DNA of 20,000 nucleotides from an uncultured virus (IMG/VR IMGVR_UViG_3300038318_000272) (lineage: Duplodnaviria; Heunggongvirae; Uroviricota; Caudoviricetes), in IMG/VR virus record IMGVR_UViG_3300038318_000272, positions 48,843 to 68,842 of that record. One strand, written 5' to 3'. The first letter of the stretch is position 1, and every line of letters begins with the position of its first letter. The notes below the pieces were generated by a model, which did no database searches, was not told where the DNA came from, and saw only the letters and a program-made list of their open reading frames with translations. Position numbers and translations under genes: made by a program. Below are positions 593 through 8,497 of the stretch, one piece after another.

Positions 593-677
593 TGGAGTGG
601 GGGATGGGAATCGAACCCACGAACCTCTACGGAAAAGGTCTTAAGCCTTTTGCATTTGGCCACTCTGCAACCCCCAC
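593..677 (-). tRNA. tRNA-Leu (anticodon UAA), 85 nt, CCA encoded, no intron
   Basis: Minus strand folds as acceptor GTGGGGG/CCCCCAC, D arm GCA-GAGTGGCCAAA-TGC, anticodon arm AAAGG-CT TAA GA-CCTTT, long variable region TCCGTAGAGGTTC, T arm GTGGG-TTCGATT-CCCAT, then T-CCA. Confidence 0.95.
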
Positions 678-678
678 A

Positions 679-763
679 TGGAGCGAGGGAAGGGATTTGA
701 ACCCATGAACCTCTACAGATGGAGTCTTGAGCCCCACGCCTTTGGCCACTCAGCAACCCTCGC
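679..763 (-). tRNA. tRNA-Leu (anticodon CAA), 85 nt, CCA encoded, no intron
   Basis: Minus strand folds as acceptor GCGAGGG/CCCTCGC, D arm GCT-GAGTGGCCAAA-GGC, anticodon arm TGGGG-CT CAA GA-CTCCA, variable region TCTGTAGAGGTTC, T arm ATGGG-TTCAAAT-CCCTT (one T.T mismatch), then T-CCA. Confidence 0.93.
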
Positions 764-874: not shown

Positions 875-1819
875 ATGGTAACAATAACCGCAAGCGCAGG
901 AACTGGAGGGACTATAGACCCTACTGGAGAAGTTACGGTTGAAGCGGGTGGAAACCAAGTCTTTACTTTCACCCCCTCAACTGGATATGAGGTTGATACT
1001 GTTCTCGTCGGGGGTGTAGCCGTCACAGTTACAGGCAACACCTACGAGATTGAGAACGTGACCGCAGATACAACTATCGCTGTATCTTTCAAAGAGACCA
1101 TAGTCTCTTACACCATCACCGCAACTGCTGGAACAGGCGGGACTATAGACCCGACTGGAGAAGTCACTGTCGTATCGGGTGAGGACCAGACCTTTACCTT
1201 CACGGCAGGGGCTGGATATGAGATAGATAAGGTACTTGTCGATGGGGTGGAAGTCACCATTTCTGGTAACACCTATACTATGACGAATGTGACGGAAGAC
1301 GGAACGATTGCTGTTTCCTTCAAAGAGACCATAGTCCCTTACACCATCACCGCAACTGCTGGGAATGGCGGAACTATTGCACCGTCTGGTGCGGTGGAAG
1401 TGGAAGCTGGAGCAGACCAGATTTTCACAATAACGGCTGGAACTGGCTTTGAGATAGATGATGTTCTTGTAGGCGGTGTTTCAGTTGGAAAGGTAGGAAC
1501 CTACACGTTCGAGGATGTGTCGGCTGATTCCACCATTGCTGTGTCTTTCAAGGCGGTTGAGCCCGAGCCCGTTGTCGTAGGCCCTCGGGCCAAAGTGATA
1601 CATGACGTGTTTGGAGCTACCCGTGTAGATGTCATACACCTTAGAGGCAGGTATGCTGTCGGCGGAGTCAAGATTGGCCTCAAACAGGGCATCGTCTTAC
1701 TCGATGGTGGATTCATAGGCAGTATAGTCGGTGGTGCCTTGGTCGTGTCTAACGGCAGTGGAGAGCTCTCTGCTGGGACTGTTGTAGACGGCATATCTGG
1801 GATTGTTTTCTATAAGTAA
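875..1819 (+). CDS. Putative capsid decoration/head fibre protein with three tandem ~77-aa beta-rich repeats (divergent InlB B-repeat/Flg_new_2-like) and a C-terminal ~80-aa virion-anchor-like domain
   Basis: Three copies of YTITATAGxGGTIxPxGxVxVxxGxDQxFTxTxxxGYEIDxVLVxG...YTxxNVTxDxTIAVSF, a PEPVVV linker, then a small domain with YAVGG...ELSAGT. No signal peptide or membrane anchor. Located between capsid and adaptor genes. Confidence 0.65.
   Translation: MVTITASAGTGGTIDPTGEVTVEAGGNQVFTFTPSTGYEVDTVLVGGVAVTVTGNTYEIENVTADTTIAVSFKETIVSYTITATAGTGGTIDPTGEVTVVSGEDQTFTFTAGAGYEIDKVLVDGVEVTISGNTYTMTNVTEDGTIAVSFKETIVPYTITATAGNGGTIAPSGAVEVEAGADQIFTITAGTGFEIDDVLVGGVSVGKVGTYTFEDVSADSTIAVSFKAVEPEPVVVGPRAKVIHDVFGATRVDVIHLRGRYAVGGVKIGLKQGIVLLDGGFIGSIVGGALVVSNGSGELSAGTVVDGISGIVFYK
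878..1555 (+). repeat. Three coding tandem repeats, 231-bp period
   Basis: 1088-1131 and 1319-1362 match at 43/44 nt. GGGACTATAGACCCnACTGGAGAAGT occurs at 908 and 1139. Both offsets are 231 nt. Confidence 0.92.
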
Positions 1820-3620: not shown

Positions 3621-3668
3621 TCTCACACTATATGCAGTCATTGTACTCAAAAGTACAGGATGATTGTC

Positions 3669-5000
3669 ATGAGTGGATACAGATTTGCAGTTGGTTGGGG
3701 AGAACTCGATAGAACGAAAGCTACTGCTGGAGCCTATACGGGACCCACGGTAAAGGTTAACGGGGTAGAGCATACCCCCTTCAACAGGCTCCCCTTCTCT
3801 GGGAATGTCATGAAGACCCCCTCTCAGATTTTTGCAGAGAGGGAAACCACAGTTGAGGGTGAAAAACCCCTAATCAAAGACCTTTATGGAAGGTTCGGTG
3901 CTGGTGTCTCTGTATCTATCACTCGTAACCGCAATCTCAATCCTGTCTATGACCACGGCATAAGGCATTTCACTGCCGTATCGTCTGGGATGTATGATGT
4001 GGGTTTTGAGATAAATGGAAAATTCTCCCCTGAATTCTCTCAGTGGCTCGCATACATCTATGGCACGAATGAAGTAGAGATAAAAAGCGATACAACCTTT
4101 GCAAATATAAATTCTGTGATACCTGAGAAGATATTTAACTATCTTAAATCTGCTGAGACTGGCGTGACGAAGACCGTGTACGCTTTCAAGAATTGGGCAG
4201 TTCCTAGGATGTTCGACTTAGCGTATGTGCAAGTTAACTCTGTTACACCCGCTGGCGGTAAGAACATACTCGGTATTCTGGTCGGATGTGCCATTGACAG
4301 CGTAACCCTTACTTATGAGTCTGGAAATGATGCTACTGCTACTTTCAAGATAAGCGGTGTTGCACTCAACGATTTCGTACAGATGGCGGATGTCCCCTTC
4401 GACCTGAATTGCTACATAGCAGACATACCTCTCAACGTGCTGGTTGCGGGGTGCCTGAGCAAGGGTCAGGAAGACGGGACCGAGATGAAATACACCCCCA
4501 TAGCGCAGACTGAGCGTGCAGAGATTACCATCTCGAATAACCTCTATAAATTACCTCAGTGCCTGGATAACGTCTATTCGGGATACGCTTATGGGAATCT
4601 GGATTTCGGGATATCCACCAAAACTTACTCCAATGACCCCGATAAGTACCTGAAGCACCTGTACGGTGTTGACACTATTACGGCAAATCAGTTGTTCGTT
4701 ACAAAGAAGATACCGAAGCCGATACCCCACCTCCTGATTCGCTCCGATAACTCCTCGATAACAGAATCAGCTACTCATGCGCTGGAGATATTCCTTGAGG
4801 GCACCTATGTAGGGCAGTTGGATGTGGCTCCGTCCGAGGGTAACCCTATCATGGATGAGCCTGAGCTATCTCCCAGAAAGCTATATATAGCTGTAACTAC
4901 AACTGCTGGTCAGAACGAAGAGGAATACGTTCCCGATGCTGGCGACCCTACTAACGATGTTGCGCTGGATGCGGACTATTTCTATGGTTCTTTAGATTGA
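3669..5000 (+). CDS. Major tail (tube) protein, about 443 aa
   Basis: Start reassigned from 3561 to ATG 3669 (in frame, downstream of TATA and RBS; ATG 3660 is also possible). Beta-rich tube-like motifs SVSITRNRNLNPVY, LVGCAIDSVTLTY and AEITISNNL. Lies between terminator and chaperone. Confidence 0.78.
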   Translation: MSGYRFAVGWGELDRTKATAGAYTGPTVKVNGVEHTPFNRLPFSGNVMKTPSQIFAERETTVEGEKPLIKDLYGRFGAGVSVSITRNRNLNPVYDHGIRHFTAVSSGMYDVGFEINGKFSPEFSQWLAYIYGTNEVEIKSDTTFANINSVIPEKIFNYLKSAETGVTKTVYAFKNWAVPRMFDLAYVQVNSVTPAGGKNILGILVGCAIDSVTLTYESGNDATATFKISGVALNDFVQMADVPFDLNCYIADIPLNVLVAGCLSKGQEDGTEMKYTPIAQTERAEITISNNLYKLPQCLDNVYSGYAYGNLDFGISTKTYSNDPDKYLKHLYGVDTITANQLFVTKKIPKPIPHLLIRSDNSSITESATHALEIFLEGTYVGQLDVAPSEGNPIMDEPELSPRKLYIAVTTTAGQNEEEYVPDAGDPTNDVALDADYFYGSLD

Positions 5001-5014
5001 ATAGGTGAATAATA

Positions 5015-5428
5015 ATGAGTGGACAACTACCCAAACTACGCACAAAGGTGTTCTCTCTTGAGCCTTACGGAGGCGAGGGGGAATTCACTCTCAGAGAACT
5101 CTCTGGGATGACCAAGCAGGCTATAACCATGAACGTGCTCAGGAAAGCATCAATCGACCTGGGCAGAACGGACTTCCTTCCTAACAACACTTCTAAGAAG
5201 AAGGTGGAGGGTGGCGACCTATCCATTGAAGCTGTGCTGATGATATATAGTTTCGAGATTTACAAGGCACAGATTCTGGCAAGCGTTATAGATGGACCTG
5301 GGGTGGAGAACGGAAGATTGAGCGTAGAAGCAGTCAATTCCTTCAGGGAGGATTTGATAGAGGGGCTTATGGAGGCGATACTCGACTTCGATAAGTTCCC
5401 TTTAGTGCAGACAGGTGGGACGGAGTAG
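5015..5428 (+). CDS. Tail assembly chaperone (lambda gpG equivalent)
   Basis: 137 aa between tail tube and tape measure genes. AGGTGA RBS at 5003-5008. FTLRELSG motif near the N-terminus. Slippery heptamer near the 3' end. Confidence 0.8.
   Translation: MSGQLPKLRTKVFSLEPYGGEGEFTLRELSGMTKQAITMNVLRKASIDLGRTDFLPNNTSKKKVEGGDLSIEAVLMIYSFEIYKAQILASVIDGPGVENGRLSVEAVNSFREDLIEGLMEAILDFDKFPLVQTGGTE
5398..5404 (+). other. Programmed -1 ribosomal frameshift site C CCT TTA
   Basis: X XXY YYZ heptamer in the correct phase (codons TTC CCT TTA at 5396-5404). The -1 frame is open from here to TAG 5665-5667. Confidence 0.82.
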
Positions 5429-5667
5429 AAGAAAGAGCGATAGACGCATACGTGAGAGGTGTAGAGTTCGGCTCAGACAACCTCGAAATAAACTCTTTGA
5501 TAGTGATGGCAGACTGGATGGCTAACACAGGTAAGGGGTCTGCGGACTGGATGGATTTATCCGATTCAGACCGCAAACTCCTTATCGTAAACTATTTCGC
5601 AAGGGAGAGGAGAAATAAGAGCATGATGAAGTTGGCGATTCAGGAGGCTTTTAGTAAAAATGGGTAG
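5404..5667 (+). CDS. Frameshift extension of the tail chaperone (lambda gpGT equivalent), fusion about 217 aa
   Basis: The -1 frame reads SADRWDGVEERAIDAYVRGVEF... and runs into the tracked ORF 5452..5667. WMDLSDSDRKLL resembles gpT-like segments. It overlaps the tape measure start. Confidence 0.78.
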   Translation, partial: SADRWDGVEERAIDAYVRGVEFGSDNLEINSLIVMADWMANTGKGSADWMDLSDSDRKLLIVNYFARERRNKSMMKLAIQEAFSKNG

Positions 5668-8497
5668 AGGTCGTGCTGTTGATGAGGGGGCTAGTTATGT
5701 TGCCCGCTCTATTGAATCCGAAGAGGATTTAAGGAATGTCGTATCCTCACTCAGGGCGATGGAGGGAACCCTTTACAAATTATCCGACAATCTCAAAATA
5801 GCTGGAGAAGAAAAACGCCAAGATTCCCTGGAAAAGAACATCAAAACCCTTAACGATGGTATAAAGGATTTAACTAACATTGCCAGAACCAGAAAGGGGG
5901 AGAGAATAGACGAAAAGGAAATTCAGAGGTTATTCGGCAAAGCCGTAAGCGGTATGCTGAAAGACCTCCAATCCTCCAGCCCCATAATAGATAAGAAACA
6001 CATTTCTCATGGGTTGGACATCTCCCCTCAAGACATGGATGTTCTGAGAAAGAAATTCCTGAATTTCATCTCGACCACATTCACTTATCTTCCTCACTAT
6101 AAATCATCCAAACCATCTGCTGGATTTGGAGCAGATAATGAGTTGGCTGATGATTATAACAAATTGATGGATGAACTCATCAGTATAAAAGAGAGAGAGG
6201 TAAAACAAGCTGATAAGGCAAAGGCCCTCGAGAAGATTGAATTAGATAAGACTAAAAGGCTTATTAAGGCGAAAACCGAACAGACTGAAGCAATCGAAGA
6301 AGAAACCAAAGAGATAAAGAAAGTCAAAGGGAGACGCAGGAAGCTGGGCAGTGAGCCCCTGACTCCAGAACAGCAATCTGCTAATGAAAGACGGGCAAAA
6401 AATCACGAGGTGGCGGTAGAGAAAGAAAAAGCAAACCAGAGAAGCACATCTATCCAGAATGCCGTAGTGCGTCTGAATATGAATAATATCAAGCGTGCTG
6501 AAGAAGGAGCAGAAGAGATTCTGAGCAACATGAGTCAGAATAAAAAACCCCTCAACAGTTTTATTCATGGGATGCAGAGGGCAATGCTACGGCATGCCAA
6601 TGATGAGGATAAAGAGGAACTGCAAGCTCAATCCCCATATGGTCAGACTATGTTAAAAAGACTAATCCCTGGGATTGTGAAGCTTTCTGGGGCAGGACCG
6701 ACAGACGAAGATTTAGCCAGCCCATATTTGTATAAGAACAGCAAGACTGGAGCTGAAGTCAAACTACCATATTCTTTACAAACAGCAATAGATGTAATCA
6801 ATGGCAAAATCCAAGAGGTGGTCTCTTCAGTAGAGGATGTCGTTGAGAAACAAGAAGATGTTGTAAAAGCCGTTCAAGAAAGCACGACCGTGATGGAGAG
6901 GGTGGTAAGTAAAGATGGTAAATTCGAGAAAGTAGATGGTAATTGGAGAAGGATTCAGAGAGAGGATGGTAAACAACCCCCGACTCTAGCTGAAGCCCAA
7001 GGTGCGATGATGCAAGCCATAGGTGCGATGCTTCAAGCCCCTACTACAAAGGGAGTAGTAGATACTTCTTCTCAATCAATTAACTCGGTTGTTAATTCTC
7101 CTATAACTAAATCTTGGACGACGGGTGGTTTCGTCCGAACCCCTATTACAGACAGAGATAAAGCTCGACCACCTCGGGCCTTCACTACTTCTAACCCCCA
7201 CACCAAAACTCACGGGGGTGGAAGTACCCAAACAACTCCGACCCAAAATCCAATCCCCACATTTCCAAGGGGATACCCATCTCTTTTACCCCCATTTCCA
7301 GCAGGACCTACTCCACCCTCGCCCCCACCCCCTCCATTATGGGATAGATTTAAAACGGGAGTTAAGGACCAATATGGAGCTGTTAAAAAAGGGATGGCTG
7401 ATGCTAAACGAGATAGGTATATCAGGTGGGCATCATCTCAATTTAGTAAGGGTAAATCCATCTCTGGTGGTCCTTCTGCTTTGGCCAGATTCGGTATGTG
7501 GTCGGGAGACCAATTAAACACGGGCGTGAATATAGGCAAGAGTGCAGTCCAGACAGCTACCAACATAGGAGATAAAGCAAAAAGTGGTTCTGTATCTCAA
7601 TCTATTGCTAAGTCATCCAAAATATCCAGTGCGCTATGGAATCTGGGTGGCGGAGATGAATCAGAGGAGAAGGGTGAGGAGAAATCGGGCATGGCTAAAA
7701 TGGCCGTGGGGTTAGGTATAGTCATTGCTATTCTAAAGAAACTCACCGAATCCTCCCCCATCCTCAAAGCAGTATTAGAATTGTTCAACCTAGGTATGAC
7801 CCTATTCTTCATGCCGTTCGGTAATATGCTGGGAGAGGTCCTACTCCCCTTCATGATGCAGTTCATAGACCTCATGGTGAAGTGGAACATCTTCATGTCA
7901 GACCTTCCTGCTAAATTGGGAGAGTGGTTTGCACAAATACCTGAACGGATAAAGAATTGGTGGGATGGGGTCAAGGCTTGGTTCGTTGGGCTAAGGTCTA
8001 TGTTCATAGATTGGATTGTGGGCGGTCTATTATGGTTATGGGATAAACTTAATTTTGCATTAAGTGTCTATAAGAAAATCTTTCTTGACTTGCCAGTTGC
8101 GATTGCACTCAAAATATGGGATTATATGAAACAGATTCCCACGATGATAGCAAATGTAATCAAAGGCGCACTTGGCATGGGTGAGGGAGGGGTAATTGAT
8201 ACTGTAACTGGTACGGTAGGGAACGCCGTATCATCTGTTAAAGGTCTCCTTGGGTTCGCAGAAGGTGGATATGTTCCTGCCAAACCTGGTGGAACACCCA
8301 TTATAGTGGGAGAGGGTGGTAAAGGTGAGTTCATAGTACCCGAAGGCTCCGCAATCAAATCTATAAGTGGAAACACGGGTTCCAGCGGTAGTGTGGTCAA
8401 CATCTCTATCTCAGGGAACGTGTACGGTGTCAATGACTTGGAAAGAGTAATCAAGAACGCCGTAGATGATTCAATGAACAAGGCGAGGTATAGATAA
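5660..8497 (+). CDS. Tape measure protein, 945 aa
   Basis: Follows the chaperone pair. Charged helical N-terminal half, hydrophobic segment with periodic Trp/Phe, and typical C-terminal motifs FAEGGYVP...IIVGEGGKGEFIVP and VVNISISGNVYG. GGAGG RBS upstream. Confidence 0.9.
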   Translation: MGRGRAVDEGASYVARSIESEEDLRNVVSSLRAMEGTLYKLSDNLKIAGEEKRQDSLEKNIKTLNDGIKDLTNIARTRKGERIDEKEIQRLFGKAVSGMLKDLQSSSPIIDKKHISHGLDISPQDMDVLRKKFLNFISTTFTYLPHYKSSKPSAGFGADNELADDYNKLMDELISIKEREVKQADKAKALEKIELDKTKRLIKAKTEQTEAIEEETKEIKKVKGRRRKLGSEPLTPEQQSANERRAKNHEVAVEKEKANQRSTSIQNAVVRLNMNNIKRAEEGAEEILSNMSQNKKPLNSFIHGMQRAMLRHANDEDKEELQAQSPYGQTMLKRLIPGIVKLSGAGPTDEDLASPYLYKNSKTGAEVKLPYSLQTAIDVINGKIQEVVSSVEDVVEKQEDVVKAVQESTTVMERVVSKDGKFEKVDGNWRRIQREDGKQPPTLAEAQGAMMQAIGAMLQAPTTKGVVDTSSQSINSVVNSPITKSWTTGGFVRTPITDRDKARPPRAFTTSNPHTKTHGGGSTQTTPTQNPIPTFPRGYPSLLPPFPAGPTPPSPPPPPLWDRFKTGVKDQYGAVKKGMADAKRDRYIRWASSQFSKGKSISGGPSALARFGMWSGDQLNTGVNIGKSAVQTATNIGDKAKSGSVSQSIAKSSKISSALWNLGGGDESEEKGEEKSGMAKMAVGLGIVIAILKKLTESSPILKAVLELFNLGMTLFFMPFGNMLGEVLLPFMMQFIDLMVKWNIFMSDLPAKLGEWFAQIPERIKNWWDGVKAWFVGLRSMFIDWIVGGLLWLWDKLNFALSVYKKIFLDLPVAIALKIWDYMKQIPTMIANVIKGALGMGEGGVIDTVTGTVGNAVSSVKGLLGFAEGGYVPAKPGGTPIIVGEGGKGEFIVPEGSAIKSISGNTGSSGSVVNISISGNVYGVNDLERVIKNAVDDSMNKARYR

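Follow-up and report, generated by a model that had tools for sequence, protein, structure and literature searches.

Very probably, the DNA described here carries a tail assembly chaperone locus of the lambda G/GT type, in which the heptamer C CCU UUN itself, read by host tRNAs, would be the conserved signal for a -1 slip, and the tRNA genes of the virus would be a lineage-specific gain that compensates for codon usage. The comparative evidence for a programmed -1 slip at the G/T junction is strong, and its product is predicted. The locus thus appears to be a known kind of system with a motif not met in the literature searched. The window, that is, the whole stretch of 20,000 nucleotides analyzed, makes up the final 20 kb of a virus record of 68,842 bp whose completeness is rated at 100%. 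It comprises the end of the capsid gene, two tRNA genes, an Ig-like gene, genes of the neck and the tube, the chaperone pair, a long probable tape-measure gene, and genes of the tail tip. The features around the junction are as follows:

3660 to 5000, plus strand: tail tube (major tail) protein; tblastn to the major tail protein of vir335, E 4e-4; Pfam Phage_tube_2, E 0.008, below the cut-off
5015 to 5428, plus strand: tail assembly chaperone G, 137 aa; open reading frame with an AlphaFold model of pLDDT 83 (21 sequences)
5398 to 5404, plus strand: -1 slippery heptamer C CCT TTA, encoding Pro-Leu in frame 0 and Pro-Phe in frame -1, 10 codons before the G stop
5398 to 5667, plus strand: T domain in the -1 frame, 89 codons; open frame, homologous from the slip onward, with a predicted GT fusion of 217 aa
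5660 to 8497, plus strand: probable tape-measure protein, 945 aa, by position and length; its start overlaps the end of T, and a homolog follows T in relatives

Methanomassiliicoccales are the most likely hosts of this virus and its relatives, as the viral RadA has its nearest matches (46-48%) mostly in genomes of this order, vir335, the sole tube match among 50,697 phage records, is listed with a Methanomassiliicoccales host, and tube homologs were found in 11 of 261 Methanomassiliicoccales genomes. In one of these genomes (G059), the contig bearing the tube homolog is syntenic with this virus over the stretch between RadA and the tape-measure gene. Elsewhere in the virus genome (G000:C1:2900-5515, 41177-42232, and 28998-31040) lie genes for an anaerobic ribonucleotide reductase, the archaeal RadA, which is common to the whole clade, and a terminase of 680 aa that is longer than those of the relatives and may contain an intein. 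The gene following the capsid gene (window positions 875-1819) encodes three Ig-like repeats (Flg_new_2); in three runs, contigs lack 231-260 nt of this gene, and the number of Ig-like repeats therefore varies among strains.

The original prediction had read CCCTTTA at 5398-5404 as C CCT TTA, with UUA in the A site, as the slip site of a G/GT pair; the sequence bears out this reading of the letters, and the frameshift itself is well supported by the open T frame, by conservation, and by the chaperone-like fold of G. The pair lies between the tail tube gene, assigned by weak matches, and the tape-measure gene, assigned by position; the tape-measure candidate at 5660-8497 has no Pfam or PHROG profile match, so that its name is a probable one. 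Among 48,161 solved chains, the G model has 2ob9, the HK97 tail assembly chaperone, as a joint best match (Z 7.0, with 91 residues aligned at rmsd 3.3), a Z value below 8 being no proof by itself, and its matches in BFVD include many entries named tail assembly chaperone at E values of 0.01-0.1, none of them under 0.001. Profile searches with G gave no Pfam or PHROG match at the cut-off, and PHROG scans of G and T family members returned single weak matches only. From 5395, the -1 frame stays open as far as the stop codon at 5665-5667, overlapping the next ATG, and thus ends at the start of the tape-measure gene. The T model is all-helical (pLDDT 92), and the fold search with it gave no clear match, with nothing under E 0.9. 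Transcriptional slippage at the site was rejected because the runs are short.

Eighteen lineages with the junction in hand were drawn from GenBank, IMG/VR, and Methanomassiliicoccales genomes, and C CCT TTN stands at the junction in 16 of them, with the A-site codon distributed as follows:

TTA (8 lineages): this virus, G001, G059, G265, G266, G267, G268, G047
TTG (5 lineages): vir335, G176, G178, G174, G275
TTT (2 lineages): G154, G161
TTC (1 lineage): G141
Exceptions (2 lineages, same position): G175, C CCT TCG (L134:3374-3380); G037, T TTT TTC (L135)

The T frame spans 86-101 codons and is homologous from the slip onward, with no start codon shared among the 17 of 17 lineages aligned. Given the amino acids encoded, the chance of such a slippery codon choice was 0.01-0.19 per lineage in 17/17 lineages tested, which are not independent of one another. 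Among close lineages aligned as DNA, CCCTTTA is invariant (7/7); in the seven first found, position 7 always stays A, while positions 8-9 vary, and the chance of eight TTA lineages would be about 1e-3 if they were independent, so UUA itself seems favored. In the tube tree, the lineages with the TTA site fall into a single supported clade, made up of AT-richer viruses, and one long branch, and the site is therefore most simply taken to be older than the tRNA genes of this virus. Before counting, we dropped G199 (the contig stops before the junction), the second of the tube-like matches in G175 (not followed by G/T), G273, G274, and L186 (junction outside the DNA examined, in which no tRNA was seen), and vir519 and halovirus records (likeness in the capsid only); G002 was merged into G001, and G269-G272 into vir335. 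The homologs P0001-P0006, P0011, and P0012, whose sequence is known as protein alone, all end in F-P-L and were left out of the codon counts. Single-protein scans of IMG/VR with G, with the tube protein, and with alignment A1 found no relative, nor did a GTDB scan with the tube alignment A3.

From these comparisons, a course of events can be proposed for the locus. Most ribosomes would finish G at 5428, and a minority would slip back one base on C CCU UUN; in the P site, tRNA-Pro would move its pairing from CCU to CCC, and the Leu tRNA in the A site might or might not follow onto UUU. The predicted product is the 217-aa GT, with the junction peptide FPLSADR or FPFSADR, which would link the chaperone bound to the tape-measure protein with the tube protein. 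What the family conserves as a signal would be the heptamer as such, decoded by tRNAs of the host. Together with a tRNA-Gln(UUG), the two Leu tRNAs would be a lineage-specific gain that helps to translate the AT-richer virus genome at large, UUA and CAA being codons that its host seldom uses, and any effect of these tRNAs on the slip rate would be a side effect.

Neither of the usual stimulators was seen around the site, which confirms what the original prediction had said of a downstream hairpin and a spaced Shine-Dalgarno (SD) sequence. No downstream hairpin was detected at the site of this virus (minimum free energy [MFE] z -0.6 and +0.07), and no SD-like sequence lies 7-21 nt upstream of the slip. 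Across relatives, the hairpin was rejected as a conserved stimulator, with z below -2 in only one of 17 lineages (G037). An upstream SD-like stimulator was likewise rejected: seven of 17 lineages reached values of 0.08 or less against the gene background, but only 2/17 reached 0.1 or less under a synonymous-codon control. With no conserved hairpin or SD sequence, codon pausing is left as a possible stimulator of the slip.

Such pausing could come from the host alone. It is possible, though we would not call it probable, that the AT-rich clade keeps UUA because scarce host tRNA-Leu(UAA) stalls the ribosome and drives a slip of one tRNA, that in the P site, with the viral tRNA being incidental. 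TTA occupies the site in seven of eight clade members and in provirus G047, whose own TTA share is 2.6%, and one-tRNA slippage under tRNA limitation has been described as independent of stimulators (PMC8211752). In G175, the exceptional C CCT TCG would scarcely allow the A-site tRNA to re-pair, which suggests that only the P-site tRNA slips there. Against this, the GC-rich clade, in which TTA would be rarest (1-3% of Leu codons), uses TTA in 0/8 members, and easier re-pairing of a U34 tRNA on UUU may also explain the preference for A. Since the host-based reading concerns the route of the slip, it is compatible with the favored explanation of a conserved heptamer read by host tRNAs.

The tRNA genes of the window were considered next to the codon usage that they might serve:

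593 to 677, minus strand: tRNA-Leu(UAA), second gene of a tandem pair (ARAGORN; Rfam RF00005, 52.4 bits)
679 to 763, minus strand: tRNA-Leu(CAA), first gene of the pair, 1 nt upstream of the UAA gene (ARAGORN, Rfam), overlooked in the original prediction
789 to 796 (796-789), minus strand: TATA-like box TTTAAATA, 26 nt upstream of the CAA gene, read by eye

The TATA-like box may serve the tRNA pair as a promoter, a reading based on general archaeal promoter spacing. A tRNA-Leu(UAA) in the same late region, as first reported, is thus present, but the TATA promoter of its own that had been ascribed to it is not, because the box precedes the CAA gene and the UAA gene comes second in the pair. The tRNA-Leu(CAA) is identical to the viral UAA gene at 65/85 positions and to the host tRNA-Leu(UAA) at 68/85. 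Together with the tRNA-Gln(UUG) elsewhere in the genome, the virus has three tRNAs. A tRNA-Leu(UAA)-type gene was found in four of five host genomes searched, two of them confirmed by ARAGORN. Four runs were compared; contigs of X12 and X14 extend over the tRNA pair as well as the junction. Among the contigs listed for the RNA run X15, no viral one covers the tRNA genes, which carries no weight either way. Between window positions 751 and 807, where the 5' part of tRNA-Leu(CAA) and the promoter region lie, run X12 has about 20 differences from the window, the remainder being 98-99% alike; this stretch may be a variant or recombined tRNA allele. At the position of the tRNA pair, G001 has a long-stemmed sequence of 120 nt, preceded by a TATA-like box (L007:7725-7855, minus strand; MFE -46.6, z -2.1), which had no Rfam match over the cut-off and is possibly a non-coding RNA.

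The codon UUA is not reserved for the slip. TTA accounts for 163 of 913 Leu codons in 27 confident virus genes, for 16 of 71 in the tape-measure gene, and for 91 of 356 from that gene onward; a second TTA lies inside the -1 frame itself, and in G266 the share is 29.5%. The earlier observation that the G frame (5015-5428) has a single TTA among its 16 Leu codons is correct as a count, but as a signal it falls within chance, the probability of at most one in 16 being 0.19-0.40 at the virus's own TTA rate. Likewise, the visible capsid segment does lack TTA among 14 Leu codons, but the whole capsid gene has one in 30, and TTA is frequent from the tape-measure gene on. The presumed rarity of the codon in the host was upheld: UUA makes up 1.6-3.0% of Leu codons in four host proxies and 0.7-13% in 22 radA loci, these being proxies rather than the identified host. 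UUA being rare in candidate hosts, tRNA supply could alter the slip rate as a side effect.

When the 61 codons were ranked by how far the virus over-uses them relative to the four proxies, TTA came 1, 1, 1, and 2; CAA, which the tRNA-Gln reads, came 4, 2, 3, and 16; and TTG came 32, 10, 17, and 24. Against the 22 pooled radA loci, CAA came second and TTA third. The viral tRNAs thus read codons that the virus over-uses (TTA against 4/4 proxies, CAA against 3/4). The top rank of TTA points to codon compensation, which has been called the most widely accepted explanation of phage tRNAs (PMC10264068) and fits the UAA and Gln tRNAs well; the CAA tRNA is explained less well, as TTG is only weakly enriched. 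Viral tRNA-Leu(UAA) therefore probably helps to read a codon that the virus often uses. We consider it unlikely that the viral tRNAs instead make up for host tRNAs that an antiviral anticodon nuclease has cleaved, as proposed for phage tRNAs in general (PMC10264068): the viral tRNA-Leu(UAA) does differ from its host counterpart at 20 of 85 positions, but the two have the same 7-nt anticodon loop, and the codon enrichment fits compensation without any nuclease.

The original prediction further proposed that, by way of the A-site codon, the G:GT ratio could be set or timed by the level of the tRNA-Leu(UAA) that the virus itself encodes. The comparison asked for there, whether CCCTTTA occurs together with tRNA-Leu(UAA), turned out otherwise: only this virus among the eight TTA lineages has the tRNA, and the other seven lack it in the DNA examined, five of them being partial records and two being rated 100% complete. 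The latter two are G266, of 52,984 bp with inverted ends of 127 nt, and G267, of 46,348 bp with inverted ends of 75 nt. Each has the CCCTTTA site, neither Rfam nor ARAGORN detected a tRNA in them, and their gene order matches that of this virus between terminase and tail fibre; ends of this inverted type may arise as artefacts of assembly, and this genome is longer than either record. As a positive control, the same Rfam search recovered all three tRNAs of this genome. The stretch after the capsid gene, where the tRNA pair lies here, is present and tRNA-free in G266, G267, G001, G059, G265, and G268. For TTG, the cognate tRNA-Leu(CAA) was found in one of five lineages (G275); vir335 (83 kb, circular) is among the four without it, combining CCCTTTG with a tRNA-Met only. 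The tRNA scan covered 20 of 45 kb of the G161 contig and 20 of 91 kb of the G175 contig. G275, whose record is 45% complete, lies within the TTA clade as its only UUG member, and its atypical tRNA-Leu(CAA) is unrelated to that of this virus (38/84 identical). It is one of seven tRNAs among viral genes in G275:C1:4523-5940 (L193, L194); it has C at position 33, and the array includes a tRNA-Ile(UAU). A tRNA-Ile(UAU) is unusual for archaea.

Since relatives keep the site without the tRNA, an outcome that the original prediction had itself named as a refutation, and 8 of the 16 C CCT TTN lineages use another A-site codon, a circuit in which viral tRNA-Leu(UAA) sets or times G:GT is not supported, and we regard it as unlikely. 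It draws on the rarity of UUA in host proxies, on the missing stimulator, and on the fact that both clade members seen with a tRNA-Leu can read their own A-site codon (UUA in this virus, with UAA and CAA tRNAs; UUG in G275, with a CAA tRNA). However, the G275 match is one event, expected about 2 times in 8 by chance, and this virus, having both tRNAs, would match either codon; the 91 TTA codons in the tape-measure and other tail genes would, moreover, compete for the same tRNA. Its general premise, that A-site tRNA supply can change -1 slippage, holds in principle. At the HIV-1 gag-pol site U UUU UUA, cognate Leu-tRNA lowers slippage in vitro from about 50% to 12% (PMC6547452), and the lambda G:GT ratio is shifted by modification (thiolation) of host tRNA-Lys (PMC3296357). 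These precedents share with the present site the dependence of slippage on A-site tRNA supply or state and, for HIV-1, UUA in the A site, but they involve host rather than virus-encoded tRNAs, the effect here being putative only, and the HIV-1 study describes a second route that keeps the ratio constant and stresses this constant final ratio (PMC6547452). By analogy with these systems, the viral tRNA might plausibly influence the slip rate as a side effect, and a dedicated circuit is not indicated. We give correspondingly little credence to a narrower version, in which members with a gained Leu tRNA (this virus and G275) would use it to lower late slippage at a stimulator-less, hungry-codon C CCU UUR site, setting G:GT. 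Least likely is the absence of any frameshift, with T translated separately from GTG 5452 or a later ATG, since, although a 71-aa ORF starts at that GTG and the vir335 record annotates two separate ORFs, homology in the -1 frame already sets in before 5452, the lineages do not share the positions of Met in T, and the heptamer is conserved beyond the needs of codon choice.

A G/GT locus with a conserved heptamer agrees with what is known of tail assembly chaperones. The G/GT -1 frameshift is widely conserved and has already been proposed for haloarchaeal viruses (PMC5009743, PMC8211752, PMC7911831). As in lambda gpG/gpGT and HK97 (PMC5009743), overlapping ORFs lie between the tube and tape-measure genes, a heptamer of the form X XXY YYZ lies near the 3' end of G, and G has a chaperone-like fold; unlike there, the slip is C CCU UUN (Pro plus Leu or Phe) rather than G GGA AAG, the host is probably an archaeon, and G has no profile-level sequence similarity to chaperones of the lambda and HK97 type. 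A pair of the lambda type would be expected to yield the GT fusion at a few percent and to need it for tails. The haloarchaeal siphoviruses HVTV-1, HCTV-1/2/5, and Hardycor1 share an archaeal G/GT -1 frameshift, proposed from sequence, and a capsid protein distantly related to that of this virus (21-23%); the HCTV-1 chaperone is among the fold matches of G, albeit weakly (E 0.12). Their slip sites differ, being G GGA AAG in HVTV-1 and G GGA AAT in Hardycor1. Another counterpart is Caudoviricetes sp. vir335 (NC_134205), a Methanomassiliicoccales virus with the same tube-G-T order, a C CCT TT site, and related tube, capsid, and portal proteins, but with UUG in the A site, 58% GC, only a tRNA-Met, and a frameshift left unannotated in its record. 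A -1 frameshift in a methanogen virus has been described for the MSTV1 capsid (PMC11375127). Our search, mainly of open-access literature, found no paper that deals with the C CCU UUN site or with tuning of G/GT by a virus-encoded tRNA; the 2004 survey of Xu, Hendrix, and Duda or the description of vir335 may list the site.

Were the tRNA circuit true, it would give viral tRNAs a regulatory role, and the comparative evidence stands mostly against it. With the conserved junction, the G/GT frameshift would reach a further family, probably of Methanomassiliicoccales viruses, that has a conserved slip motif of another kind, C CCU UUN, and in which gene callers split the G/T pair into two hypothetical genes. 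Slipping by archaeal ribosomes has been reported for only one cellular archaeal gene, according to a 2021 review (PMC8211752), and the family may offer natural A-site variants (UUA, UUG, UUU, UUC, and UCG) for its study.
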